The notes beneath the pieces are model-generated. The model was not told where the DNA came from. It did not search any database and saw only the letters and a list, made by a program, of their open reading frames with translations. A stretch of 37,809 bases of DNA from Hyalangium sp. (GTDB lineage: Bacteria; Myxococcota; Myxococcia; Myxococcales; Myxococcaceae), in the NCBI RefSeq assembly GCF_045802625.1, contig NZ_JBJMQP010000096.1:1-37809 (forward strand). Direction: 5' to 3'. Shown piece after piece: positions 14,321-37,809 of the stretch (positions are counted from its first letter, which is position 1; every line of letters begins with the position of its first letter). Made by a program: the position numbers and the translations under genes.

Positions 14321-16273
14321 TCAGCCGACCCGGTACGAGAGATCGTGGAGGCGCAGCTCGTTCCACAACTGCTGGCACTTCTCCAGGGTCCAGCTCGCCG
14401 GGAGCGTGCGCTGCGCGTTCGAGCCACTGAGCAGCTCGCCGTGGAGGCCATGGTAGGCCGTGGTGTCGATGAAATGGACGGTGTAGCCGAGAGGCGTCAG
14501 CAACGCTTGCATGTAGCACTCCAGCACGTCCACGGCGTTGCTCGGGATCCAGACCCGATTGACTTCGGTGGGGCCGGTGTGCAGCTCGCCATGCTCGGAG
14601 AACTTCTGCGCGTTGTTCTCATGTTTGTGCAGCTCTTCCGGAGAGCAGCCGTGCTCCTGGGCGAGCTGGTTCACCTGGGTGCCTTTCCGGGCCCAGGTCC
14701 AGTAACCCACCCACTCCTTTGTCTCGATCTTCATCTGTTGGATGCCGGAGTCGCCCAGCTCTTGCAGCTGCTTCATGAGCTCGCTCTTCAGCTTCTCCTC
14801 CACCAAGGCCTCCTTCTTGCCCCAGGCTCCGTCCGCCTGATCGCCGGGCCAGGGCGGCTGGAGGCCCAGCTCCTCCAGGAGCTTCGACGCCCGGTGACGC
14901 TCCACGCGGGGCCCGAAGGGCTTCGGCACCAGGGCGTGGCCGTTGATGACTTGCAGGTTGACCAGGCCGGCCGTATGGGCGGTGCCCTGTCCGGGAACAG
15001 AGGTGTCGAACGCCACGGGGATCGGGATGAAGCTCTCGTCATCCAGCGCGAGCCCGGCCTTCAGCCGCTCCCGGAGATGAGCGAACTTCTCGCGCTGCAG
15101 CGTGGTGTTTGTCTCGCGGAACGTCCCCACCGAGAGCGAGGGGTAGCGAGCCGTGAGCTGATTCTGCTCCTTTGGCTCGAGGAGCTCATAGAGCCGGATC
15201 ATCAGTCCGGGATCCGCGATGAGCACTCGGGAGGAGCCCTCTTCGGGCTGGAGGAAGGCCACCAGCTCACTGACGTGCCCGACGGCAAGCCAGGAGGTGT
15301 CGATCGGGAGCAGGGGCTGGAGCCGCTGCGACGTCAACCACTGGCGCAGCCGCGGTTCCATGCGGCCCTGCTCGCTGTCCCCGACGACCAGCTTGCCGAG
15401 CGGCGCGGGCGGGTGCTCGGTGACGGCGGGACCGGACTCGTCTGCCGCGAGCGGCGCGGTCTTGCTCGGCACGGGGGGGCTGACGAGTACGTTGCCCCCA
15501 TAGCTCTGGTGGGACTCTCTGGCTCCCTTCTCGGCGAAGAAGACGTCGTTGCAGACGGGCAGCAGGCCCGGCAGCGTGGACAGGACAAGCTCGCTGAGCG
15601 AGCCCTTGGGCAGCCTCGGGAAGTGCAGGGCCACGGCCGTCTGGGTATGCTTGTCGAAGTCGCAGCAATAGCCTGCTTGGAACTGATCCTGGACCCGCGC
15701 GTTGTCTTTGAAGCCATCCTTGAGCGTGTTGAAGAGATACAGTCCATGAGCGCCGTTGCCGTGCACGAGCGCGCTGGTGCCGTGCGCGAGCGCCTGAGAC
15801 GCATCAGCGGGGGACTGCAGGGATTCAGGCCAGATTTGATGGCAGGCCAGCGAGAGATCGTAGACGAACGGGTGATTCTCAGCAGGATCGTAGTACGCGA
15901 AGAGCCTCTCGCAGTGGGCCCAGCCGGGGAGGGCGAGCCAGGGGCCCAGGAGCGTGCTGCCCCACGCGGTGGGCAGGAAGCCGGCGAAGGCCTCTCCTTG
16001 GAGACTGCCCGGCTGGAGCTTCAGGGTGCCGCGCGTCGCGTCGCTCAACACGAGGTTGGCAGGAGTGAGATCCGTGGCGTGGATGGGCTCCTGGCCGCTG
16101 GTGAGCCTCTGCTCGATGACGGTGTGGTGCACCTTGAAGAGAAACTTCGGGTCCAGGCCGCAGGCGCTCTGGAGATGATCGGCCAGGGCCTCCCCCGTCA
16201 GCTCCGCGTCGGGGAGATGTACCTTGGTTTTGAACCAGCGCCCCTGACTGAAGAAATAGACATCCGTATCCAT
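14321..16273 (-). CDS. protein-arginine deiminase (PAD) family homolog, with catalytic Cys to Ser and Asp to Ser substitutions
   Basis: Blocks match PAD catalytic-domain signatures: RVQDQFQAGY (PAD4 D350 region), LAVGHVSELVAFLQP (VGHVDEF), HALVPKPFGP (HLGIPKPFGP), VHFIDTTAYHGLHGELLSGSNA (TFINDF.YH..HGEVHCGTNV). Start ATG 16273 with SD GAGGAG. The track's GTG 16369 would overlap the NmrA gene. Confidence 0.75.
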   Translation of the reverse strand: MDTDVYFFSQGRWFKTKVHLPDAELTGEALADHLQSACGLDPKFLFKVHHTVIEQRLTSGQEPIHATDLTPANLVLSDATRGTLKLQPGSLQGEAFAGFLPTAWGSTLLGPWLALPGWAHCERLFAYYDPAENHPFVYDLSLACHQIWPESLQSPADASQALAHGTSALVHGNGAHGLYLFNTLKDGFKDNARVQDQFQAGYCCDFDKHTQTAVALHFPRLPKGSLSELVLSTLPGLLPVCNDVFFAEKGARESHQSYGGNVLVSPPVPSKTAPLAADESGPAVTEHPPAPLGKLVVGDSEQGRMEPRLRQWLTSQRLQPLLPIDTSWLAVGHVSELVAFLQPEEGSSRVLIADPGLMIRLYELLEPKEQNQLTARYPSLSVGTFRETNTTLQREKFAHLRERLKAGLALDDESFIPIPVAFDTSVPGQGTAHTAGLVNLQVINGHALVPKPFGPRVERHRASKLLEELGLQPPWPGDQADGAWGKKEALVEEKLKSELMKQLQELGDSGIQQMKIETKEWVGYWTWARKGTQVNQLAQEHGCSPEELHKHENNAQKFSEHGELHTGPTEVNRVWIPSNAVDVLECYMQALLTPLGYTVHFIDTTAYHGLHGELLSGSNAQRTLPASWTLEKCQQLWNELRLHDLSYRVG

Positions 16274-16326
16274 GGGTCTCCTCGAGCTTGTCGGCCTGGA
16301 CGAAGGTGCGCACGCGCGTGCCAGGG

Positions 16327-17277
16327 TTACGCCGCCCCCAGCAGGCGTGCCTTGTTGCGCGCGAGCCACTCGGAGAACGTCTGCAGCCCCGGGTTCAGCT
16401 CGCGCGCGAAGGCAGGGTCGCGGACAGCGCAGTACTCCTTCTCGAAGTCGCGCATGAACTGGAACATGTTCGCCAGGTCCTTGGCGCCGGGGAAGTTGAA
16501 CGTCCGGTACACCTCCGGCGGCATGTAGCCGTAGATGACCTCCTGGCCGAGCGCCTGTCTCAGCGTCGCGGCGATCTGCTCACCCGTCAGGTGCTCGCCG
16601 GCCAGGCCCACCGTCTTGCCGATCAGCTCGCGGCCCCGCTTGAAGATGCCGTAGGCACAGTCGCCGATGTCCTCGCTGGCGATGCCCGCGAGCTTCTTGT
16701 CCGCCATGGGCAGGACGAAGACGAGCTTGCCGTCGGGACCCTTCTTCGAGCCCATCCCGAAGCGCAGCAGGTTGTCCCAGGAGAATGTCGTGAGGAGGAA
16801 CGTGGTCGGCACGCCCAGCTCCGTGAAGTGGCGGTCGCTCTCGCCCTTCACGTCGAACTGGGGGACCTTGTACTTCCCCTTCAACGTCGGCATCCGCTCA
16901 TCCTCGAGCGGCATCAGGCGGCGCGTGTCCTCCAGCGTCGACCAGATGACGTGCTGCAGGCCCGCATCCTTGGCGGCCTGAGCCATTGTCCTGGCCTGGG
17001 CGAGCTCCTTCTCGGGAGCGGAGTTCTCCCAGAAGTTCGTGAGGCAGAAGGCCCCGTAGGCGCCCGCGAACGCCGCGCGCATGCTGCCCAGATCGTTCAC
17101 ATCGGCCGTGACGACCTCCGCGCCGAGCTTCGCCAGCTTGTGTGCCAGCTCGGAGTTTGACTTGCGCGTGAGGGCGCGCACCGCGAACTCGCCGCTGGGG
17201 TCCGCGAGGATGGCACGCGCAAGGCCTCCCCCCTGATCTCCCGTTGCTCCCACCACCGCGATGATCTTCTTGTTCAT
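16327..17277 (-). CDS. NmrA-family NAD(P)-binding protein
   Basis: Rossmann motif VVGATGDQGG with NmrA-like architecture; 316 aa. ATG start with SD GGAGA. Starts 21 nt downstream of the SET gene. Confidence 0.85.
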   Translation of the reverse strand: MNKKIIAVVGATGDQGGGLARAILADPSGEFAVRALTRKSNSELAHKLAKLGAEVVTADVNDLGSMRAAFAGAYGAFCLTNFWENSAPEKELAQARTMAQAAKDAGLQHVIWSTLEDTRRLMPLEDERMPTLKGKYKVPQFDVKGESDRHFTELGVPTTFLLTTFSWDNLLRFGMGSKKGPDGKLVFVLPMADKKLAGIASEDIGDCAYGIFKRGRELIGKTVGLAGEHLTGEQIAATLRQALGQEVIYGYMPPEVYRTFNFPGAKDLANMFQFMRDFEKEYCAVRDPAFARELNPGLQTFSEWLARNKARLLGAA

Positions 17278-27853: not shown

Positions 27854-27962
27854 TAGGGCACGCCTCTCCCTGACAACCCAGATCTGACAATCAGCACCGC
27901 CGGTGTTCCCTCTGGGAGCGCCGGCGGTGCTGGCACGCCAGCTACCCCTCATTGGATCTCCC

Positions 27963-28409
27963 ATGGCAAAGCCTAACCAGACCACCGATCACGCCCAGGT
28001 TCTCATCCACGATCTCATCCTTGCCGTTCAGTCCTCGTTGGACATCGCTGAGGATACGGCCCGCAAGCACTATTCCTTCTCTGTCGCGGAGCTGGAGGTC
28101 TCCGCCAGCTTCGACTTCGAGATGACGGAGCAGGACAACGACATTCCGGACGACAAGCCGCAGCCCAAGCGCTGGTTCTCGCTCTTCGGCGGCAAGAAGG
28201 AGCCGGCCTCGCGCGCACGCACGCACGACTTCTCGGAGAAGGACTCCAGCAAGCTCACCGTCCGCATGCTGTTCCGGCCTGGCGGCAAGCTCCTGGTGTC
28301 TTCGACGCCGCCGCTGTCAGAGGGCTCGACCGCTCCGGCCGAGGATCCGCCCAGCCAGCCCGAGGCCGCCGAGCCCGCTCCTCCGCCGGCGGGAAAGCGC
28401 TCCAAGTAG
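27963..28409 (+). CDS. small hypothetical protein B (148 aa), paralog of protein A with an insertion and a Pro/Glu-rich tail
   Basis: Shares an N-terminal helix with A, plus HY.F.V / SFDFE / W / LTV blocks (A: YYFEVNITSDFELK..IWRMS..ITVKC; B: HYSFSVAELEVSASFDFEM..RWFSLF..LTVRM). ATG 27963 is preferred over the track start 27903. Confidence 0.55.
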   Translation: MAKPNQTTDHAQVLIHDLILAVQSSLDIAEDTARKHYSFSVAELEVSASFDFEMTEQDNDIPDDKPQPKRWFSLFGGKKEPASRARTHDFSEKDSSKLTVRMLFRPGGKLLVSSTPPLSEGSTAPAEDPPSQPEAAEPAPPPAGKRSK

Positions 28410-28459: not shown

Positions 28460-29461
28460 TCACTTCGCCTGGAAGAGCTTGCGCTTCTCGAAGGCGTCCT
28501 TCACCGCGTCCGAGACCTGGTGCCCCCGCGCGGCCATCAGCCCCGCGACATCCACGGGCTTGGACACCGCGCAGACACCGGTGGGGTTGATCGCCGTCAT
28601 GTACCCATCCCCGCAGTCCGCGCCGTGAGCCTTCAGGATCGTGCCGAACTGCAGCTCCGCCATCAGCCGGAGCAGGTGGTGGGTCCGCTCGACCTCGAGC
28701 TCGGGCGACTCGCCGCGCACCTGATGATCCCAGTGGATGAAGCGCAGCGTGCCAACCGGCGTGTAGTTCCAGTGCATCAAGGCCTGGAAGCGCTTGCCGA
28801 TGTCAGGCACCTGGCGGAGCAGCTCGAGGAGCGATGTCGAGGGGGGCAGGTGCGGGACGGCGTCGTCCTGGAACTCGAAGCGCTGGTGGATGTTGTGGAA
28901 CGGGTAGGCCTTGGCGAACCCCACGTCACCACACTTGGGGGCGGCGAAGGTGAAGATGCCCGCGGGCTCGATGCCCTCGAGGCGGGCGAACCGCATGGCC
29001 GCGAGCGTGGCCATGGCCCCGCCCTTGTTGTGGCCCGTGAGGTAGAGGGGGAGCGTCTTGTCCCCAGCCTGGCGCAGCGCCCGGACCTGCGGCAGGAGCC
29101 GGGACCAGAGCGCATCGAGCGAGCCCCAGAACCCCGCGTGCAGCGCCCCGGGGATGCCAGGCACGGAGATGAGCTCGGCGTGGAAGTCGTTCATCCAGTC
29201 GAGCGCGGGGGCCATGCCTCGCTCCGTGGGAGGCAGGGTGCCGCGGAACGCGACGACCACGGCGTTGAGCGCGCTGCTGCGGCCCACCAGGCACGCGTCG
29301 ACGTGGGGCTTCCCGGCGCCTCCGACGATGGCGACAGGGGCGATGAGTCCGGAGGCGCTGTCATAGGGAGGATAGGAGGAGGAGAACGAGCCATTGGATT
29401 GGACGGCATAGCTGTAGACACTGGCACAGAGCATCTGGCCTTCGAGGGTGGGTGCGGGCAT
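28460..29461 (-). CDS. lipase class 3 / DUF2974 (Mbeg1-like) alpha/beta-hydrolase homolog with Asn replacing the nucleophilic Ser
   Basis: LYLTGHNKGGAMATLAA corresponds to G-H-S-[LK]-G-G in lipase_3/DUF2974. ATG 29461 with SD AGGAAG. No signal peptide. Confidence 0.7.
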   Translation of the reverse strand: MPAPTLEGQMLCASVYSYAVQSNGSFSSSYPPYDSASGLIAPVAIVGGAGKPHVDACLVGRSSALNAVVVAFRGTLPPTERGMAPALDWMNDFHAELISVPGIPGALHAGFWGSLDALWSRLLPQVRALRQAGDKTLPLYLTGHNKGGAMATLAAMRFARLEGIEPAGIFTFAAPKCGDVGFAKAYPFHNIHQRFEFQDDAVPHLPPSTSLLELLRQVPDIGKRFQALMHWNYTPVGTLRFIHWDHQVRGESPELEVERTHHLLRLMAELQFGTILKAHGADCGDGYMTAINPTGVCAVSKPVDVAGLMAARGHQVSDAVKDAFEKRKLFQAK

Positions 29462-29627
29462 GAGCGCTTCCTGTTTGGGGTTGAGATTGGGGGGAGCCCA
29501 ATCGCAGGGGAAGACGCCGCGGGAATGCACCTCGTGAAAGAGCGAGCCGCTTCACTGCGGGAGCCGGCCGCACGTCCTTCAGCACAGCCACCCATTGAAG
29601 GGGGCCTTTGCGCTGGAGAAGCCGCGG

Positions 29628-30350
29628 ATGCCATTGTCGACCAAGCCCGAATACCCTCACGACTACAACCCAGACAACACTTGGAAGAGCCTCGTACCCA
29701 GGGGTGGCAATCCCGCCGCCTGGTTCAAAGGGGCCGCTGGCATGGCCAGCCTCATCCAGGAGCGTCAGGGGGTGGGCTTCACCGAGGGCCCCATCTACCG
29801 GGTGCCCCTGGGCCGCTGTGTAGCGTGCCTGGTCCAGTTCCCGGTCGCCGCGCTGACGATCGAGAGCATCATCCATTACGACACCTACGCCGGGAAGGCG
29901 CTCGGGCCGCAGGATCTGGTGAACATGCACAACGACACGTCCAACCTGACGTTCCTGTGCAAGGGCTGCCACGCCAGCAAGGATCTCGAGCCGAGTACGC
30001 TCTATGACTGGATCATGGAGACCGTGCGGCTCGAGGAGCACGGGACGCGGCTGAGCCAGGTCCAGGTGGTGAGGCAGGCCTGGCTGGACATGGAGCGGGT
30101 CGCGGCGCAGCAGTTCCTCCACATGGACCTGACGGGCCTGCAGCACGTGCTGGCCGACCCCAACCTCAGCCCGAGATCCCAGGCGGCCGCGCGAATGGCT
30201 CGCATCAGCCTGGCGGGCCAGAAGGCGCTCAATGACGCGCACTTCCTGTTCGACTTTCATCTGGCGAAGGATGTGGAGCTGCTGGCCCACCAGCTCGAGG
30301 CCGAGGCCAAGCTCCACTTGCAGCCCGGTAAGTCCAAGCCCGTTCCGTAA
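29628..30350 (+). CDS. HNH endonuclease-domain protein
   Basis: GRCVAC...IIHYD...VNMHNDTSNLTFLCKGCHASKD fits the C-x2-C/H-N-H core, followed by a helical C-terminal domain. ATG 29628; the track gives TTG 29595. Confidence 0.7.
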   Translation: MPLSTKPEYPHDYNPDNTWKSLVPRGGNPAAWFKGAAGMASLIQERQGVGFTEGPIYRVPLGRCVACLVQFPVAALTIESIIHYDTYAGKALGPQDLVNMHNDTSNLTFLCKGCHASKDLEPSTLYDWIMETVRLEEHGTRLSQVQVVRQAWLDMERVAAQQFLHMDLTGLQHVLADPNLSPRSQAAARMARISLAGQKALNDAHFLFDFHLAKDVELLAHQLEAEAKLHLQPGKSKPVP

Positions 30351-30367: not shown

Positions 30368-30396
30368 GGCCCTCCTCGCCGCGATGGAGGAGGGCC
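30368..30396. terminator. perfect 10-bp hairpin between the convergent HNH and GH19 genes
   Basis: ggccctcctc-gccgcgatg-gaggagggcc. Confidence 0.4.
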
Positions 30397-30406
30397 AGCC
30401 GGTGCT

Positions 30407-31006
30407 TCAGCGGCTCAGCAGCTTCAGCGCCTGCTGGTAGTACGCATCACGAGACGACTTGCCATTGTAGCCGCCGTTGATGCGGTAGGTGATTGCGTCG
30501 AGGTTGCCCTCGTCCGCGTACTTGTTGAGGTGATGGCTGGTCCAAAACCAGACGGCCGTGCGGAACCCCACCTCGGGCTCGGCGGCGCGGTTGGGGTTGT
30601 TCTCCAGATCGATGTCCAGTGCGGCCCCCGCGGCGCGGTAGTTGGCGCGGCCGGTGATCTGGATCGGACCGCGGCCCTTGTAGCGCACGCCGTCGCCCGG
30701 TTGGACGTTGCCCAGATCCCGCCGCCCCTCGTAGGCCTTCCCCGAGGCCAGCTCCTCGAAGTAGCGGAGCTCTCCGCTCTCGTGAGCGAGCTGCGCCAGG
30801 AACGCCGCCCGCCGGCGAGGGGTGTCGATCCCTCCCTCGGCCATGGCCGCATTCAGGTGGGGCAGCAGCGCGATGGCGTGCGCCTCGGGCAGCTTGCGCA
30901 TGAGGGCGCGGAGCTGCTCCAGCGTCACTCCTTGCGAAGTGCTCGTCGCGGGTGCTGCGGGGGGGATAGGCGTGTCGGGGGAGGGGGAGGAACCGGAGGA
31001 TGACAT
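30407..31006 (-). CDS. glycoside hydrolase family 19 (chitinase/endolysin-like) peptidoglycan hydrolase, with no signal peptide
   Basis: FLAQLAHESGELRYFEE carries both catalytic Glu, and YKGRGPIQITGRANY is present. A Pro/Ser linker lies N-terminal. ATG 31006; an alternative GTG 31111 would leave only 6 nt after the upstream gene. Confidence 0.8.
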   Translation of the reverse strand: MSSSGSSPSPDTPIPPAAPATSTSQGVTLEQLRALMRKLPEAHAIALLPHLNAAMAEGGIDTPRRRAAFLAQLAHESGELRYFEELASGKAYEGRRDLGNVQPGDGVRYKGRGPIQITGRANYRAAGAALDIDLENNPNRAAEPEVGFRTAVWFWTSHHLNKYADEGNLDAITYRINGGYNGKSSRDAYYQQALKLLSR

Positions 31007-31117
31007 GGGGAGCTCTCGGGCTTGGCGGCCACAGCAGAAGGTGGACCTGATGGATGCCTGGAAGACGCCTGGACCAGAGCGCTTGTGACTGGCGGACGGG
31101 GCCTGGAGCACTCTGCC

Positions 31118-34100
31118 TCAAGGCCGCGGGGCGGGCGGAGTCCGATCATGCGTCTGTTCGCACGAGGCGGACGCCTGCCGCGCCGGAGCTGGGAGATCGC
31201 CTAGATAATTCTGGCGCTCCCAGGCCGTCAGACAGGCCGAGCTGGCCGCCTGGAGCCGCTCCTGGAGTGAGTCCATGGGGAGGGGCTCGCGCGGGCGCCA
31301 GAGGCGGGCGCTCCCATCCGTGGAGCCGGTGAGGAGCTGCACGTCTTCCCCTTGGGGGCTGAACGCGGCCGATGTCACCTGGCCCTCGTGCGAGGAGAGG
31401 ACGAGGTGGGGCTCCCGGGTATCGCTGGCGAGCCAGAGGCGGACGCGCGCATCCGCGCAGGCGGTGACGAACCGGCTTCCATCCGGGCTCCAGGCGGCCC
31501 AGAGCACCGGGGCTTCGTGCCGGGCGACGAATTGGACCCCGTGGACCTTGCCCCCCTCCACGCGCCAGATGCGTGCCGTGCCATCCTGTGAGGCGGTGAG
31601 CACCCGCGTCGGATCCTGGGGATGGAAGGCCGCCGAGAGGACCCAGTCGTCGTGCCCGTAGAGCGTGGCGAGCAGGTTCCCCTCCGTGCTCCAGATGCGT
31701 GCCGTGCCATCCTGGGAGGCGGTGAGCACCCGGCGGCCATCCGCGCTGAAGGACACGGAGCGGACCTGGGCGCCATGTCCCTCGAGCAGGATGGCACGCC
31801 GCGGGTCGTCCACACGGACGATCCGGGTGGTGCTGGCGCCCGAGGCGAGCGCCACCCACTGTCCGTCGGGGCTGAACGCGGCGCCGAAGAGGGGCTCCTG
31901 CTGGGACACCAGGATGCGGCCCGCCGCGTGCCCATCCGAGGGCCAGATGCGCGCCGTTCCGTCCCGGGAGGCTGTCAGCAGCCACTTCCCATCCTGGCTG
32001 AAGGCCACCGAGAGCACATCCTGGGTGTGCCCCTGCAGCACGCGCATGTGCCGGCCGTCATCCGACCAGAGGCGCACCGCGCCATCCTGCGAGGCCGTGG
32101 CCACCCGCGCTCCGTCAGGGCTGAAGGCAACGGACCAGACGAAGCTGCCCTGCCCGGGCAGTGGGCGCGAGTCCCTCGGCTCGTCCATTCTCCAGACCCT
32201 CGCGGTGGCGTCGACGGAGCCCGTCACCATCTGCTTCCCATCCGGACCGAAGGCACCCCACAGGAGGGTGGAGCGGTGCCCTCGCAGGATCCGCGGGGGC
32301 TCGGAGTCGTGGACGGACCAGAGCCGCGCGGTGGTGTCCGAGGAGACGGTGAGGATCCGGTCTCCCAGCGGGCCGCTGAAGGTGGCCATGCGGACGGCAC
32401 CCTGGTGTCCGCGCAGCACCCGGGGCTCGCCGCTCCCGTCCGCCCTCCAGAGCCGGGCGGTGTTGTCCACGGAGGCCGTCACCACCCACTGCCCATCCGG
32501 GCTGAAGCGCGCGGTGGTGAGCTCCCCCTGGTGCCCCTTCAACAGCACGGGTCCTCCCAAGCCGCTGACAGGCCAGATGCGGGCGATGCCATCCCGCGCG
32601 ACCGTCAGCACGCGGGTCCCCTCCGGATCGAACAGGGCGGAGGTGACGGTGGCGGCATGAGGCAGTTCGCGGGGACTGGCTGGCGCATCGAAGGACAGGA
32701 TGCGCGCCTTGCCATCCTGCGAGGCGGTGACCAGCCTCTTCCCATCCGGGCTGAAGGCCACGGTGGAGACGGGGCCCTGATGACGCAGGACGAGCGGCTC
32801 GGCCACGGTCTCGAGCGACCACACCCGCGCCATTCCATCGCGCGAGGCGGTGGCGATCTGCCGTCCATCCGGACTGAAGGCGCCCCACTGGACCACGCCG
32901 CGGTGTCTGAACTCTCGCAGGAGGTGTCCATCCGAGGTCCGCCACAGGCGCGCCGTCCCATCGTGCGAGGAGGTGAGGACCAGCGCCCCGTCTGGAGGGC
33001 TGAAGGTGGCGTGGTAGACCGGCCCCTCGTGGCCCGCCAGCACGAGGGGATCCCCCTCGCCATCGGTCCGCCAGATCCGCGCCGTACCATCTCGCGACGC
33101 CGTCACCACACGCTGCCCGTCCGGGCTGACCTCGACGTAGACCACGGCCTCCTGGTGGCCTCGCAGCACGGCGCGGCTCAGAGGTTGTTGGAGGACCTCC
33201 GAGACATCCCTGTCCCAGCCCTGGAGCTGCGACGGCTCCTGGATCTCGCGCAGCGTGAGCAGGGCCAGCGTGGGGTTCTCGTGCAGCATCGTCCGGGCCA
33301 CGCCCAGCCGGATGAGATCCCTGGCGCGCAGGGCGTACCGCTGCGCCTCCTGCCGCTCCCGCTGCTCCTGGGCCTCGTGCCGCCTGGCGTTCCAGGCCAG
33401 CCCCGCCATCGCCGCGGCAACCCCTATCGCCGCGGCGAGCAGCCCCAGCAGGCGGCGGCGGGCGGCCTGCTGCCGGGATTCGGCGCTGGCCACACTGGCG
33501 TCGATGAGCTGGAGCACGTCCGCGCCAGGATCCTCGTCGTACCGCTCCAGGACACGCTGGGAATACCCGAGCCGGCTGCCAGAGAGCAGATAGGGGGCTC
33601 CTCCATCCGCGTCTTCCCGGTGCGCCAGCCACGAGCGAGCCCAGGCTTGGAGCTCTCGGAAGTGCTGGAGGCGCTCGCGGTCCGCCAACGCCCACTCCAC
33701 GAGGGCAGGCCAGGTGCGGATCAGCGACTCGTGGGAGAGCTGCAACCACTCTTCGCCCGCCTGGCCCTCCTCGCGGATGAGGAGCCGGGCGGTGAGCAGC
33801 GCCTCGAGGACCTGCTCGAACGCGTCGCGCGCCTCCTGCGCCGTGGGGCGTACGTGCTCGAGCATCGCCCGCCTGCGCGTGCCCGGGGAGGCGCCGTGCT
33901 GGAAGTCCACCAGCTCCACCAGGAGCCTGCGCGCCTGGCGCTGCTCGGCGGGGGACAGCGCCGCGTAGAGGCGATCCGCTGCCCGCGTCAGCGCCCCGGC
34001 TACCCCACCAATGGCTGCATAGGCGCGGTGGGTGAGCTGGCCGCCGTCACGCCCCTCCCACAGCTGATCCAGCGCGTATTGCAGCAACGGCAGCGAGCCG

Positions 34101-35860
34101 GGCTCCTGTCCCACGTCCTGGAGGAGCCGATCCACCAGCCCCGGCTCGAACGTCAGCCCCACCTTGTGCGCCGGGCCCACGATGGCGGCGCGGAGCTCCT
34201 CGCCTTGAAGCTCCGTGACGAAGAGGCGGTGAGCGTCGGAATACACCACCGCGTCCAGCCGCGTCCCGGCCTCATCCACCACCAGCTCTCCGCAGCGCCC
34301 GAGATAGTCCACCCGGAGCGTGGCGAGCACGATCACCTGCCGCTCTGGATCTCGCGACAGCTCCCAGAGCGTGGCGGCCAGGGCTCGGCGTGCCTCGGGC
34401 TCCGTCAGCTGGGTGAAGAGCTCCTCGAATGGATCCACGAGCAGCAGCTGGCGCGGACAGGAGGACTGGCGAAGCTGCTGGAGCGTCTCGGTGGGCCCTT
34501 GCCCCGGGCGAAGCACCCGGACCTCCCAGTCGGAGGCCGGGAGCGCATGGAGCAGTCCGGCGAGGGCGAGCGAGGACTTGCCGCTGCCCGAGGCTCCCGC
34601 CAGCACCTGGAAGCGCGGCCGCCGCCCGTCCAGTGACTCCTGGATGCGCTGGAGGAGCTCCTGTAGGAGCCGCTCGCGCCCGAAGAAGAACCGGCGATCG
34701 GTTTTCTGGAAGGGCAGCAGGCCGCGGTAGGGCCGGATTGCCACCGGGCGTGTATCACTCCCATCCTCCGCTCGGGCGTAGAGCTGCACGGAGGCGTAAT
34801 CCAACGACGAGCTGTCGCGTGCGAGCTCGCGCCGGGCCTGTCCCATGGCCTCCTCGAGCGAGCAGGGCTGCGCCAGCAGAGAGCGGTAGAGGCTCGCGGT
34901 GAGCACTGAAGAGCCCGCGATGGACAGGGGCAGACGGGAGGCCACCACCGCCTGGATGCCCGCGCGGTGGAGCGCCTGGGCCACGCTGCCCAGGTGGTTG
35001 CCCGCCAGGCCCGCGCCGCTCTGGCACGCGGCGAGCACCACCAGCCGCAGCGTCCCCGCATGGGGCGCCAGCAGGTGGCGCAGGGTGGCGCCGTCGATGA
35101 GCTCGGGCTCGCCCCCCTCCCACGAGGCATCCCAGAGCAGGCCATAGGTCTGGCCCCGCCGGCTGCCGTGACACAGCAGGTGGAGGATGGAGATGGGTTC
35201 TCCAGGACGGGCCAGCGCCTCCCCGAGCGCCGCGAGCGAGACGTTCGGCAGGACGTCGCGGGCGGGATCAAACGGATGATCGCCCTCCTCGCAAGCCTGG
35301 CTCAGTGCGCGCAGGTGGGGCTTGTCCGGGACATGGCCTCCCGCGGCGGACCAGGCGTAGAGGATGCGCCCGCCCCGCGGTGTCCCGGCCAGAGGCGCGG
35401 CGTGCGTGTCGGGCCACTCGTAACGGATGAGGACACCGGGGAGCTCGGCCAGCGCTTGCCCGGAGGTCCCCAGCGTCAGCAGCTCCCAGGGCAGCGCGTA
35501 AAGCTCGGCCGCGGCGAAGCGGAAGGTGAGGTGCACGGGGCGCCCTTGCTCCACCGCGGCGAGGATGTCGCGTGCGTGGGCATTCCAGCCCACCCCCTCC
35601 AGAAAGGTCCGGAGCCGGTCCCCCAGGCGCTGCACCACGCTTCGGTCTGGCTGGAGCCGCTCCAGCTCCGCCAGGTCCGCCAGCAGCGGGGGCTCCCAGG
35701 AGAGCGCCGCTCGCGCATAGCTCCCATGCGCCCGGCGCAGCAGGTACTCCTGGGGCTCGAGCCGGAAGTGGAAGGGATCTCCCGCATCCTGGCCGCGCAC
35801 CAGCTCCAGGAGCAGCTCGAGCGGGGCGGCCTTTCTGATCACCGGGGAGGACATGTTCAC
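31118..35860 (-). CDS. CHAT (caspase-like) protease-STAND NTPase-TM-WD40 multidomain protein (1580 aa)
   Basis: CHAT His/Cys dyad at ISILHLLCHG and LVVLAACQSG. P-loop GASGSGKSS, Walker B LLLVDPFEE. One hydrophobic helix LLGLLAAAIGVAAAMAGLAW at aa 803-822. About 14 WD40 repeats from aa 895 to the end. The GTG start overlaps the SBP stop (GTGA); ATG 35854 is the alternative. Confidence 0.85.
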   Translation of the reverse strand: MNMSSPVIRKAAPLELLLELVRGQDAGDPFHFRLEPQEYLLRRAHGSYARAALSWEPPLLADLAELERLQPDRSVVQRLGDRLRTFLEGVGWNAHARDILAAVEQGRPVHLTFRFAAAELYALPWELLTLGTSGQALAELPGVLIRYEWPDTHAAPLAGTPRGGRILYAWSAAGGHVPDKPHLRALSQACEEGDHPFDPARDVLPNVSLAALGEALARPGEPISILHLLCHGSRRGQTYGLLWDASWEGGEPELIDGATLRHLLAPHAGTLRLVVLAACQSGAGLAGNHLGSVAQALHRAGIQAVVASRLPLSIAGSSVLTASLYRSLLAQPCSLEEAMGQARRELARDSSSLDYASVQLYARAEDGSDTRPVAIRPYRGLLPFQKTDRRFFFGRERLLQELLQRIQESLDGRRPRFQVLAGASGSGKSSLALAGLLHALPASDWEVRVLRPGQGPTETLQQLRQSSCPRQLLLVDPFEELFTQLTEPEARRALAATLWELSRDPERQVIVLATLRVDYLGRCGELVVDEAGTRLDAVVYSDAHRLFVTELQGEELRAAIVGPAHKVGLTFEPGLVDRLLQDVGQEPGSLPLLQYALDQLWEGRDGGQLTHRAYAAIGGVAGALTRAADRLYAALSPAEQRQARRLLVELVDFQHGASPGTRRRAMLEHVRPTAQEARDAFEQVLEALLTARLLIREEGQAGEEWLQLSHESLIRTWPALVEWALADRERLQHFRELQAWARSWLAHREDADGGAPYLLSGSRLGYSQRVLERYDEDPGADVLQLIDASVASAESRQQAARRRLLGLLAAAIGVAAAMAGLAWNARRHEAQEQRERQEAQRYALRARDLIRLGVARTMLHENPTLALLTLREIQEPSQLQGWDRDVSEVLQQPLSRAVLRGHQEAVVYVEVSPDGQRVVTASRDGTARIWRTDGEGDPLVLAGHEGPVYHATFSPPDGALVLTSSHDGTARLWRTSDGHLLREFRHRGVVQWGAFSPDGRQIATASRDGMARVWSLETVAEPLVLRHQGPVSTVAFSPDGKRLVTASQDGKARILSFDAPASPRELPHAATVTSALFDPEGTRVLTVARDGIARIWPVSGLGGPVLLKGHQGELTTARFSPDGQWVVTASVDNTARLWRADGSGEPRVLRGHQGAVRMATFSGPLGDRILTVSSDTTARLWSVHDSEPPRILRGHRSTLLWGAFGPDGKQMVTGSVDATARVWRMDEPRDSRPLPGQGSFVWSVAFSPDGARVATASQDGAVRLWSDDGRHMRVLQGHTQDVLSVAFSQDGKWLLTASRDGTARIWPSDGHAAGRILVSQQEPLFGAAFSPDGQWVALASGASTTRIVRVDDPRRAILLEGHGAQVRSVSFSADGRRVLTASQDGTARIWSTEGNLLATLYGHDDWVLSAAFHPQDPTRVLTASQDGTARIWRVEGGKVHGVQFVARHEAPVLWAAWSPDGSRFVTACADARVRLWLASDTREPHLVLSSHEGQVTSAAFSPQGEDVQLLTGSTDGSARLWRPREPLPMDSLQERLQAASSACLTAWERQNYLGDLPAPARQASASCEQTHDRTPPAPRP

Positions 35861-37056
35861 CGGAGCGACTTCGGCTGGACGGTCTGGCCTTCCTGGCGCA
35901 CCAGCCTGCCATCCGGGTCGTAGATGGAGCTGGCCAGCTCCAGGAAGCGGAAGGGGATCTTCATGTCGAGCCGGCGGGCCTTGCGGAAGTGGATGGCGAG
36001 ATCCGGCGGCGAGATGATGCCCACGGGGAGCCGCGACGCCGGCAGCCTGCTGTCCAGGATGCTCTGCACATAGAGCGCGCCCAGCTGCCCGGCGCTCTTG
36101 AAGGGCACGCCGATGGACATCACCGCACTGGCATCCCCCTCGCGCACCACCTCCCGCACGGAGCCGAGCACGGGGATGCCGGCGGAGAGGCGGTCAATCC
36201 TCTCCAGCTCGTCGTACACGGTCGAGGAGGTGGTGATCCAGAACAGGCTGTGCCGGGCCCCCGGGTCGATCTGGCGCATCGCGCGAGCCATTTTTGGGAG
36301 CTGCTCCGAGAGGAGTGTGCTCGCGGTGGCCTTGCCATTCACGGCCAGCTCCAGGAGCTGGAATCCGTCGCGGGCCGCCATGCGGCGCATCCCCTCCGCT
36401 TCGACCTCGACGGCGCTCTGGTTGCGCCGATCGTAGAGCACCGTCATCACCTTGAGAGGCCCCATCAGCTCCTGCAGGTAGTGGAGCTGCGCCTCCGGGG
36501 GGATGCTCAGCGAGACGAAGGCCATGTTGGACGGCCGGGTCCGCTGGGAGGCTCGCTCCTCGAAGCCAAGCCACAGCTCCGGATCCTTGCAGAGCGCCAC
36601 CACCGGCGTGGGCTGGTTGCCGAAGCGGTTGTAGAAGAACCGCGCCGCGTCCGAGCCCATGGCGATGATCAGGTCGAACTGCCCGGAGTCCGCCAGCGCC
36701 AGCATCCGCTCGTACTCGTCCCGGCTGCTGTCGAGCTTGTACAGCGTGAGCTCCACCGGGACGCCCTTGTCCCGGAAGACGGGCAACATCCCCTCGAGGA
36801 TCCAGTTGAGGCTGCTCTGGGCCACGGTGAAGAGGACGAGCACCTCGCGCGCTGGCGTGTGAGGATCGGGAGAGGACTCGGGCGAGATGCGGATCCGTCC
36901 CCGGGACGCCTCCAGCTTCCAACCCTTGCTCGCTTCGCCGGGCAGGGTGAGCCAGTGCGAGAGATCCTCGGGCTGGGCCTGGACGGGACCGGAAGCCGCC
37001 AGTGCCAGGAGCAGCCCCAGCAGCCTCCAGCTTCGCGCAGGGGAGCATTCACGCAT
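35857..37056 (-). CDS. ABC-transporter-type periplasmic substrate-binding protein (ABC_sub_bind / COG2984-like)
   Basis: Sec signal peptide MRECSPARSWRLLGLLLALAASGPVQA, then a two-lobed SBP. ATG 37056 overlaps the MFS stop by 8 nt. Confidence 0.7.
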   Translation of the reverse strand: MRECSPARSWRLLGLLLALAASGPVQAQPEDLSHWLTLPGEASKGWKLEASRGRIRISPESSPDPHTPAREVLVLFTVAQSSLNWILEGMLPVFRDKGVPVELTLYKLDSSRDEYERMLALADSGQFDLIIAMGSDAARFFYNRFGNQPTPVVALCKDPELWLGFEERASQRTRPSNMAFVSLSIPPEAQLHYLQELMGPLKVMTVLYDRRNQSAVEVEAEGMRRMAARDGFQLLELAVNGKATASTLLSEQLPKMARAMRQIDPGARHSLFWITTSSTVYDELERIDRLSAGIPVLGSVREVVREGDASAVMSIGVPFKSAGQLGALYVQSILDSRLPASRLPVGIISPPDLAIHFRKARRLDMKIPFRFLELASSIYDPDGRLVRQEGQTVQPKSLR

Positions 37057-37809
37057 GATGCACCTCGTGTCCGTGCAGGCGCCGGCTCGCCCAGGTGAAC
37101 CCGGCGCCGAGCAGGAGCGCCATGACGCCAAGCCACCCAAAGGCCTGGAACCGGTTCGGGTAGATGAGCAGCAGGGCGCTGACGAGCATGGGCCCCAGGC
37201 ACTGCCCGAGTCTGCTGATGAAGCGATGGAGGGCCAGGGACGTCCGCTCCTCTCCGCCCCCTTCCTGAGAGCGGGTGAGATGGCGCTCGAGGGGCGCGTG
37301 GATGAGTCCGTGAGACAGCCCCAGCAGCCCCAGCGCCAGGGCGCACAGCGCCTCTTCGCTCAGCCAACTCCCGAGTGCGGGCAGGGAGTCCACGAACCCG
37401 AGCGCGAGCAACCCCAGCCCAGTCCCCGCCATGCCAGCTTGGAGCAGCCTCCGCGGCCGGCCGGGCCCGCTGGGGAGCACGGTGAGCAGGTGATGGGACA
37501 GCATCACGCCCAGCGCATAGATCGCGAGCAGCTGACCGATCCGATCCAGGTCATAGCCCCTGCGCGTCAGCACCAGAGGCAACGCGAAGGAGAGGAGTCC
37601 GCTGCGGATGAGCAGGGTGGGTATTCCCACGAGCAGGGTCGCTCCGTGGAACCCTGGAGCCTTCCACGCCCGTGCCAACCCGGAGAGGGACGAAGGAGGA
37701 CGGGAGCGGCGAAGCACGGGGGGAGTGGGTCTGCTCCGAGGCGGGAGAGGAGGCAGAAGCACCAGCGCGTACGCCAGCGCAAGCAGGCCCGCGAGGCCGC
37801 TCAGCAGGA
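37049..37809 (-). CDS. MFS-type transporter, C-terminal half (5' end beyond window)
   Basis: At least 6 TM helices, with an MFS-like loop LTRRGYDLDRIGQ. The reading frame stays open to the window edge. Confidence 0.6.
   Translation of the reverse strand, partial: LLSGLAGLLALAYALVLLPPLPPRSRPTPPVLRRSRPPSSLSGLARAWKAPGFHGATLLVGIPTLLIRSGLLSFALPLVLTRRGYDLDRIGQLLAIYALGVMLSHHLLTVLPSGPGRPRRLLQAGMAGTGLGLLALGFVDSLPALGSWLSEEALCALALGLLGLSHGLIHAPLERHLTRSQEGGGEERTSLALHRFISRLGQCLGPMLVSALLLIYPNRFQAFGWLGVMALLLGAGFTWASRRLHGHEVHHA

Follow-up and report, generated by a model that had tools for sequence, protein, structure and literature searches.

An endolysin-type GH19 lysozyme gene without export signal is conserved behind a CHAT-nSTAND1 gene in a myxobacterial lineage

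RESULTS

The locus in Hyalangium sp.

This work concerns a lysozyme gene of glycoside hydrolase family 19 (GH19) from Hyalangium sp. and the gene directly upstream of it, which encodes a STAND protein with a caspase-like CHAT protease domain. Both genes lie on the minus strand of contig NZ_JBJMQP010000096.1 (RefSeq assembly GCF_045802625.1). Positions 1 to 37,809 of this contig were analyzed, and this whole stretch of 37,809 nucleotides is referred to as the window. The features of the two genes and of the DNA around the lysozyme gene are listed below, with their basis in brackets.

30407..31006, minus strand: predicted coding sequence (CDS) of the GH19 endolysin-type lysozyme, 199 amino acids, start codon ATG 31006, stop codon TGA 30407-30409 (Pfam, PHROG and PDB matches; start from ortholog alignment)
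30410..30928, minus strand: GH19 catalytic domain, residues 27-199, with E76 at 30779-30781 and E85 at 30752-30754 (AlphaFold2, Foldseek, alignment)
30929..31006, minus strand: N-terminal tail, residues 1-26 (MSSSGSSPSPDTPIPPAAPATSTSQG), Ser/Pro/Thr/Ala-rich and predicted to be disordered (AlphaFold2, substitution rates, motif alignment)
31007..31117, minus strand: non-coding spacer from the STAND stop to the GH19 start (ortholog comparison, folding, Rfam)
31052..31088, minus strand: element TCACAA-N14-GCGTCTTCCAGGCATCC (conservation in the loci named below)
30368..30396, minus strand: GC-rich hairpin (folding energy)
31118..35860, minus strand: CHAT-nSTAND1-transmembrane-WD40 protein, 1580 amino acids (Pfam, PADLOC SAVED_CHAT, motifs)
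33386..33454, minus strand: the only transmembrane helix predicted for the STAND protein (residues 803-825), located after the NTPase and before the WD40 propellers (Kyte-Doolittle value 2.25)

The GH19 enzyme is intact and of the endolysin type

The list of open reading frames contains a minus-strand frame at 30407..31111, corresponding to 234 amino acids. Its product matches the Pfam family Glyco_hydro_19 (PF00182; 6.9e-14) with 52.6 bits, above the cut-off of 25.5. Further matches are to PHROG endolysin families (phrog_181, 2e-59, covering residues 56-232 of the 234-residue form) and to the solved GH19 endolysins PWe2 (9ms7, 5.5e-35), 9eoi and 4ok7. In the numbering of the 199-residue protein, the catalytic pair consists of E76 (in AHES) and E85 (in YFEE), which are about nine residues apart, as is expected of the GH19 endolysin/lysozyme clade. 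Both glutamates are invariant in 54 aligned homologs, in agreement with an earlier note on this DNA that had pointed them out (AHESG, YFEE), and they align with E79 and E88 of C25GH19B. The latter two residues are the assigned catalytic pair of this characterized lysozyme (PMC9098779).

The AlphaFold2 model, calculated with 54 homologs, has a mean predicted local distance difference test (pLDDT) score of 86.5 and a predicted template modelling (TM) score of 0.81. It contains one all-alpha domain (residues 27-199), over most of which the pLDDT exceeds 90. The best Foldseek matches of the model are the GH19 endolysins 9ms7, 9eoi and 4ok7 with a probability of 1.0 and TM scores of 0.72-0.82, so that the model has the bilobed all-alpha fold of GH19 enzymes. 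Across genera, the pairwise ratio of nonsynonymous to synonymous substitution rates (dN/dS) of the catalytic domain is 0.25-0.5, indicating purifying selection. The window gene encodes an intact, conserved endolysin-type GH19 enzyme, which belongs to the already described myxobacterial "clade II" of endolysin-like GH19 proteins (PMC10875029). It shares 59% identity with C25GH19B across the whole catalytic domain, and on the basis of this identity peptidoglycan, rather than chitin, is its predicted substrate.

The CDS starts at ATG 31006 and is preceded by a conserved non-coding element

The earlier note had left the start of the gene between ATG 31006 and GTG 31111 and had described the enzyme as preceded by a Pro/Ser/Thr-rich linker and about 35 residues of uncertain coding status. 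Eight orthologs of 192-206 amino acids each begin at a methionine aligned with ATG 31006. Judged from this alignment, the true CDS is 30407..31006 with 199 codons for amino acids, and neither the 164-residue nor the 234-residue form. An identical protein at NCBI (P0001, from a metagenome-assembled genome (MAG) of Hyalangium sp.) is annotated with 164 residues and begins with MRKLPEAH at M36. An exact look-up of this database entry yielded no contig. Its PGAP start was rejected because it would cut away VTLEQLRAL, the sequence of helix 1, whose alignment with 9ms7 begins at residue 3 of the latter. The start at GTG 31111 was rejected because the orthologs begin at the ATG and because of the position of a conserved element within the spacer.

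The spacer between the stop of the STAND gene (31118) and ATG 31006 comprises 111 nt and contains, at 31052..31088, the element TCACAA-N14-GCGTCTTCCAGGCATCC, which is conserved across genera and occurs once per locus. It was seen in the window and in loci L001, L002, L005, L006, L007, L010 and L080. The distance between the element and the ATG is 62, 61, 38, 43 or 42 nt in different genomes. Owing to these varying distances, the element falls into each of the three frames set by the ATG and is therefore non-coding. No conservation on the protein level was found for the spacer in the ortholog comparison. The GC content at third codon positions is 0.77 in the 35 codons upstream of the ATG and 0.90 in the catalytic domain. 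Thus, the ortholog alignment and the frame test settle the start in favor of the ATG; the linker is retained, as a Ser/Pro/Thr/Ala-rich tail, and the 35 additional residues fall away as non-coding.

The element is a candidate promoter or operator of the GH19 gene. A wider regulon was considered for it and rejected, as it is present in a single copy per locus only. The spacer has no Rfam match and no stable fold (z = +1.17) that would point to an RNA structure or riboswitch, no terminator-like site was found in it, and a scan for sigma-70 promoters yielded no site. Downstream of the GH19 gene, 11 nt past its stop, there is a GC-rich hairpin with a perfect stem of 10 bp (-31.1 kcal/mol, z = -3.1), which is likely a bidirectional terminator shared with a convergent HNH-like gene.

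The enzyme and its closest homologs lack an export signal

In a Kyte-Doolittle scan of the full window protein, neither a Sec, Tat or signal-anchor-release signal nor a membrane helix was detected. The maximum for a stretch of 19 residues is 0.91, and the maximum for 11 residues within the first 80 residues is 0.75. Residues 1-26 contain no cysteine and no RR motif, as read from the sequence, and are accordingly without lipobox or Tat motif. As a positive control, C25GH19B showed a hydrophobic N-terminus (Kyte-Doolittle value 2.22) in the same test. Of the 97 closest full-length homologs, many of which carry LysM or PG_binding_1 modules, none has a hydrophobic N-terminus. The absence of a leader is a property of the clade, as it is in canonical phage endolysins. 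Together with the GH19 profile match, these results bear out the description of the gene product as an endolysin-type GH19 enzyme without signal peptide.

The upstream gene encodes a caspase-like STAND protein with a predicted membrane anchor

The GH19 gene does lie, as had been noted, directly downstream of a caspase-like STAND gene, on the same strand and 111 nt away. The STAND protein consists of a CHAT domain (residues 110-351, 2.7e-20), an nSTAND1 domain (residues 377-751, 6.6e-94) and WD40 repeats (3e-119) that amount to about 14 blades. Its caspase-like dyad H231/C279 is intact, and so is the Walker A motif at residue 422 (GASGSGKS). The protein thereby has the His/Cys dyad, the P-loop and the C-terminal repeats of the CHAT-nSTAND1 family. 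PADLOC matched it with the SAVED_CHAT model alone (3e-32) and assigned no known defense system.

A hydrophobic 19-mer is also present in 97 of 120 STAND homologs, and in most of those listed it follows the nSTAND1 module, as the helix of the window protein does. The STAND proteins are therefore probably anchored in the membrane with their repeats on its far side, a topology predicted from the hydrophobicity profile. Caspase-like STAND proteins of this kind may be membrane receptors with extracytoplasmic sensor repeats.

Two further genes precede the STAND gene:

35857..37140, minus strand: ABC_sub_bind (PF04392) protein (Pfam)
37049..37762, minus strand: partial gene of a membrane protein with several hydrophobic segments and no Pfam match, running off the window (hydrophobicity, Pfam)

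The stop of the ABC_sub_bind gene overlaps the STAND start by 4 nt (35857..35860). In orthologous loci the ABC_sub_bind gene is itself overlapped by an upstream MFS gene encoding a protein of about 790 amino acids, and the order MFS, ABC_sub_bind, STAND is kept with these overlaps in loci L001, L079 and L080. Because of the overlaps, the genes of the membrane protein, the ABC_sub_bind protein and the STAND protein form one operon. Such an operon, which joins a caspase-like STAND protein with a membrane protein and a solute-binding-protein domain, is unusual.

The gene order is fixed in a Cystobacterineae lineage

Downstream of the GH19 gene the window contains the following genes.

29595..30350, plus strand: HNH-like gene (0.0049, below the cut-off), genome-specific insertion (Pfam)
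28460..29530, minus strand: Lipase_3 gene (4.2e-19), genome-specific insertion (Pfam)
27903..28409, plus strand: small protein of 168 amino acids, no family match, no hydrophobic segment
27542..27853, plus strand: small protein of 103 amino acids, no family match, no hydrophobic segment
25580..27277, minus strand: second caspase-fold protein with a weak Peptidase_C25 match and a C-terminal HTH_28 domain (Pfam, synteny)

Look-ups of the genomic context showed that Cystobacter fuscus and Corallococcus macrosporus share the gene order of the window, i.e. ABC_sub_bind, CHAT-nSTAND1-WD40, GH19, two small genes on the opposite strand, C25-like-HTH, patatin, SDR and PhaC. A scan for GH19 genes with one genome per species returned 69 loci, whose neighbors were identified by tblastn with the window proteins. 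A CHAT-nSTAND1 neighbor was found in only six loci, namely in four of the scan and in the two from the context look-ups; they belong to five Corallococcus species and to Cystobacter fuscus. With one further pair of STAND and GH19 genes on each of two metagenome contigs, there are eight such loci besides the window. A linkage to STAND genes in other genomes, the absence of which the earlier note had named as a refutation, was thus found. All eight loci carry the whole syntenic block of about 20 kb of core chromosome, and in nine of nine loci including the window the GH19 gene is located on the same strand directly after the STAND gene, at a distance of 73-125 nt. The gene order is fixed in the Cystobacterineae lineage comprising Hyalangium, Cystobacter and Corallococcus. 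The insertion at 28460..30350, between the GH19 gene and the pair of small genes, is absent from all eight orthologous loci.

Among the loci sampled, a recurrence of the pair in independent genomic contexts was not observed. The closest GH19 relative outside the syntenic block (74% identity) has no STAND neighbor, and other relatives are fused to LysM or PG_binding modules, are bare domains of about 180 residues, or are C-terminal modules of very long open frames. The last arrangement is seen in the open frames of loci L061 (3509 amino acids) and L048 (1135 amino acids), and in proteins of the Nocardia loci L043, L050 and L055 the GH19 domain is combined with unrelated N-terminal regions. The position at the end of long frames and the occurrence in the Nocardia proteins would fit a use of the domain as a toxin module.

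The CHAT-nSTAND1 family is a large paralogous family with 925 matches, mostly from Myxococcota. Homologs of the C25-like protein with about 50% identity were found in 41 metagenome loci, and a CHAT-nSTAND1(-WD40) gene is located next to or near the C25-like homolog in several of these loci in varied arrangements (L073, L081-L083, L092, L103, L111, L115 and L117, among others). This suggests that the C25-like protein and CHAT-nSTAND1 constitute a recurrent STAND system with two proteases. The STAND and C25-like proteases appear to be the recurrent pair, with GH19 as a lineage-specific addition between them. An "effector slot" behind the STAND genes of other C25-like/STAND loci was considered and discarded, as the neighbors there are TerB, DUF2589, FG-GAP or unknown proteins and no hydrolases.

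No holin or phage genes accompany the GH19 gene

No hydrophobic segment is present in the two small neighbors, the C25-like protein or the lipase, and the search for a holin was consequently negative. In the HNH-like protein there is one hydrophobic segment (residues 75-94). The earlier note had named a cryptic signal peptide or a holin partner as features that would identify the gene as an ordinary remnant of a phage endolysin; neither was found, and the description of the enzyme as leaderless stands. The idea of a holin among the neighbors was dropped because the small proteins have no hydrophobic segment and because the module of the 103-residue protein occurs in Gammaproteobacteria without GH19 or STAND genes. 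The two small proteins belong to a module of their own and do not qualify as holins or membrane proteins.

The 103-residue protein is very rare (40 clusters among 5.8 billion) yet extremely conserved. Within Myxococcota its homologs are 87-95% identical. The identity is 71-73% for Pleionea sediminis and Spartinivicinus ruber (both Gammaproteobacteria), 72% for a MAG of the Zetaproteobacteria and 53% for a Rickettsiales genome. Its neighbors outside Myxococcota are proteins of about 120-140 residues and TPR proteins of about 230 residues, and not GH19 or STAND genes.

The explanation of the gene as a decaying remnant of a prophage lysis cassette is essentially refuted. The closest phage protein is indeed the endolysin of phage Mx1 with 61.6% identity, as would be expected of such an origin, but the catalytic residues of the window enzyme are intact, its domain is under the purifying selection described above, and its fixed place in a block of the core chromosome is shared by at least three genera. 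Moreover, neither phage nor holin nor spanin genes are present in the window. The rest of the window likewise is core chromosome with genes for RpoA, PhaC, a SET protein, NmrA, an ECF sigma factor and a sigma-54 activator. Protein-arginine deiminase (PAD) domains are uncommon in bacteria; the open reading frame at 14321..16369 on the minus strand matches this domain (PF03068, 3.8e-26).

The N-terminal extension is predicted to be a disordered tail and not a pro-domain

In the AlphaFold2 model the tail of the window protein has a pLDDT of 51-55. The orthologs carry the motif MS[FL]FGF(GSK) at their extreme N-terminus, followed by a Ser/Lys/Pro/Glu-rich linker of variable length, so that the tails range from 19 to 32 residues. 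Apart from the first 6-9 residues, the pairwise dN/dS of the tail is about 1. The motif is partly eroded in the closest metagenome relative (MSLFGSR). The MS[FL]FGF tail is carried by all orthologous copies linked to STAND genes and by no other GH19 protein, and within the 1.7 Mb of fetched loci no other gene begins with this motif. In a second AlphaFold2 run with an ortholog that keeps the motif (MSFFGFGSK), residues 1-10 have a pLDDT of 45 and do not fold back onto the active-site groove; being a single-chain prediction, this docking test is blind to inhibition in trans.

According to the earlier note, the GH19 protein would be a zymogen, i.e. an inactive precursor that is activated when the upstream CHAT protease removes an N-terminal segment. 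Several points speak for such an arrangement. The adjacent gene encodes a caspase-like protease whose H231/C279 dyad is intact, proteases readily cut disordered linkers, and gene pairs of a protease and its substrate are an established theme in bacterial immunity, with the bacterial gasdermins and Craspase-Csx30 as examples. Part of the literature also describes CHAT proteases in such protease-substrate systems. Against the zymogen, 35 residues of the proposed segment are not translated, and the real tail of 26 residues is disordered and, beyond its first 6-9 residues, evolves neutrally at variable length. The models with and without the motif (tail pLDDT 45-55) do not contain an inhibitory pro-segment packed on the enzyme or docked on its active-site groove, and the dN/dS of about 1, the variable length and the loss of the motif in the window genome leave no conserved cleavage site or segment. 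The motif was lost there while the enzyme stayed under purifying selection. Moreover, homologs without a tail are functional endolysins (e.g. the 180-residue Mx1 protein), and cleavage would leave the crossing of the inner membrane unsolved. An expressed form of C25GH19B that lacks the first 27 residues is active (PMC9098779). Proteolytic activation by the CHAT protease is thus not borne out, and we consider it improbable. Based on the models, the N-terminal extension is best described as a disordered tail, and a short conserved motif on a drifting flexible linker is more suggestive of docking or targeting than of an inhibitory pro-segment.

A targeting function could also mean that the tail is the signal of a non-Sec export pathway, comparable to an N-terminal type-3-like signal, and that the enzyme is delivered to the outside for the lysis of prey. 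A tail that is conserved at its very start and then unstructured, rich in Ser and variable in length, in a protein without Sec signal, would agree with this purely inferential idea. The loss of the motif in the window genome, the absence of secretion genes from the window and the syntenic loci, and the lack of any other gene with the motif in the fetched loci make it an improbable explanation as well.

DISCUSSION

Possible function of the GH19 gene

Overall, we tentatively favor, with a probability of roughly 40%, the interpretation that the GH19 protein is a domesticated endolysin stored in the cytoplasm, which dissolves the wall after a failure of the inner membrane; in this lineage, such a failure would plausibly be controlled by the adjacent STAND/caspase-like proteins. 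The enzyme would be constitutively active and harmless as long as it is cytoplasmic, like a canonical phage endolysin, its access to the wall being the limiting factor. Upon a breach of the inner membrane, which would be the outcome of an activation of the STAND/caspase-like module, it would degrade the peptidoglycan of the cell that produced it. The lysozyme would then represent the wall-dissolving final step of a regulated cell death or lysis and not a zymogen.

This interpretation is favored by the intact, leaderless enzyme under purifying selection and its identity to C25GH19B and the Mx1 endolysin, by the fixed position of the GH19 gene after the STAND gene in nine of nine loci, by the absence of a terminator or stable structure from the spacer and the presence of the hairpin after the GH19 stop, as well as by the restriction of the MS[FL]FGF tail to this locus, the intact motifs of the STAND protein and the second caspase-fold gene in the block. 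With its flexible linker, the motif of the orthologs resembles a site for docking to a partner, and its loss would suggest a relaxed coupling in the window genome.

A more far-reaching version, which we consider unlikely, has the GH19 protein act as a wall-lysing executioner dedicated to a caspase-like STAND receptor that spans the membrane, with the CHAT and NTPase domains inside and the WD40 repeats outside; in most species the enzyme would be recruited to this receptor via MS[FL]FGF. Such an "apoptosome plus lysozyme" would let social, multicellular bacteria respond to a periplasmic or phage signal with lysis.

Several observations weigh against a coupling of lysozyme and STAND protein. As all 97 closest homologs are leaderless, the missing leader is not a specific pointer to the neighboring CHAT protease. 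No pore-former or holin was found at the locus that could breach the membrane. At the 63 other GH19 loci a STAND neighbor is absent, and no GH19 gene was found near two sampled CHAT-nSTAND1 paralogs or at the 41 metagenome loci with C25-like homologs, several of which contain CHAT-nSTAND1. The linkage is confined to one block of the core chromosome, so that the adjacency may reflect inherited history rather than function. The conserved spacer element suggests a separate regulation of the GH19 gene, and the MS[FL]FGF motif is missing from the window copy.

The main alternative, which we consider only somewhat less probable, is that the GH19 gene is independent of the STAND gene and encodes a leaderless "clade II" lysozyme. 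The enzyme would then reach the peptidoglycan of prey, siblings or the producer itself without Sec, for instance through cell lysis, in vesicles or with contact-dependent machinery, and the adjacency would be inherited synteny. The lack of hydrophobic N-termini in homologs that often bear LysM or PG_binding_1 modules, the restriction of the linkage to a single syntenic block and the conserved candidate promoter or operator upstream of the gene all agree with this explanation, as does the presence of the GH19 fold in the delivered antibacterial type VI secretion system (T6SS) effector TseP (8xcl) and in the long frames L061 and L048. Less easily reconciled with independence is that position and strand after the STAND gene are kept in at least three genera while the window genome gained insertions alongside, that the MS[FL]FGF tail is restricted to the STAND-linked copies, and that immunity-like genes, secretion-system genes and wall-binding modules are all absent from the locus.

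Significance

In a literature search, no account of a lysozyme as the partner of a CHAT-nSTAND1 protein was found. The support for a functional coupling is limited, as it rests on conserved adjacency within a single syntenic block. If the coupling is real, a peptidoglycan hydrolase joins the known effectors of bacterial NLR-like systems; if not, the locus represents another copy of an already described enzyme clade. In myxobacteria, regulated lysis during development, abortive infection and the release of enzymes in predation is poorly understood, and so is the way in which the many leaderless GH19 enzymes of these bacteria reach peptidoglycan. A lysozyme gene held behind a caspase-like STAND gene across genera is a genetically tractable candidate pair in this respect, with Corallococcus and Cystobacter as suitable organisms. 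A practical gain of the present analysis is the corrected 199-residue gene model, in which the extension is recognized as a disordered tail.

Comparison with known systems

The STAND gene has the layout described for CHAT-nSTAND1 conflict systems, with an N-terminal CHAT effector, nSTAND1 and C-terminal repeats (Kaur et al., eLife 2021, PMC8195603; Doré et al., PNAS 2024, PMC10907252), and it belongs to a family that is greatly expanded in multicellular bacteria. In these systems, however, the fused N-terminal domain is itself the effector, whereas the window has a separate GH19 gene that is found in one lineage only; a lysozyme or peptidoglycan hydrolase partner is mentioned in neither PMC8195603 nor PMC10907252. 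As in the pairs of gasdermin and caspase-like protease or of Craspase and Csx30, the gene of a caspase-fold protease adjoins that of a potentially lethal effector. The effectors of such protease-activated pairs are cut at a defined site, which removes a folded or inhibitory segment, and the pairs recur across many unrelated genomes. Neither a removable segment nor such a recurrence was found for the window GH19 gene. With the T6SS effector TseP (PDB 8xcl) the window enzyme shares the catalytic fold, but the window and the orthologous loci are without secretion-system genes including T6SS genes, without a trafficking domain and without an immunity gene.

The characterized lysozyme C25GH19B of Corallococcus silvisoli (WP_161664743), which by experiment hydrolyzes peptidoglycan and not chitin (PMC9098779, PMC10875029), has the same E...E pair and belongs to the same myxobacterial endolysin-like "clade II". 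It was considered as an ortholog of the window gene, since the residue numbering agreed, and rejected when the sequence in the supplement proved to be a paralog with a hydrophobic N-terminus, where the window protein has a hydrophilic disordered tail. The authors predicted this N-terminus to be a signal peptide (PMC9098779, PMC10875029). As given in the supplement of PMC10875029 (MPGSGVLLGGAALVGLGAWAMRGG), it is Gly/Ala-rich and weakly hydrophobic and resembles a signal-anchor-release sequence as much as a cleaved signal peptide.

The phage GH19 endolysins of Mx1 (WNM70278, from a Myxococcus phage), PWe2 (9ms7), P. aeruginosa (9eoi) and SPN1S (4ok7) share the loop-less fold and the catalytic residues with the window enzyme, which is leaderless like canonical endolysins. 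They sit in phage genomes and depend on holins, and the Mx1 protein is a bare domain of 180 residues, whereas the window gene, with no holin beside it, is located in the core chromosome, encodes an additional tail of 26 residues and follows a STAND gene.

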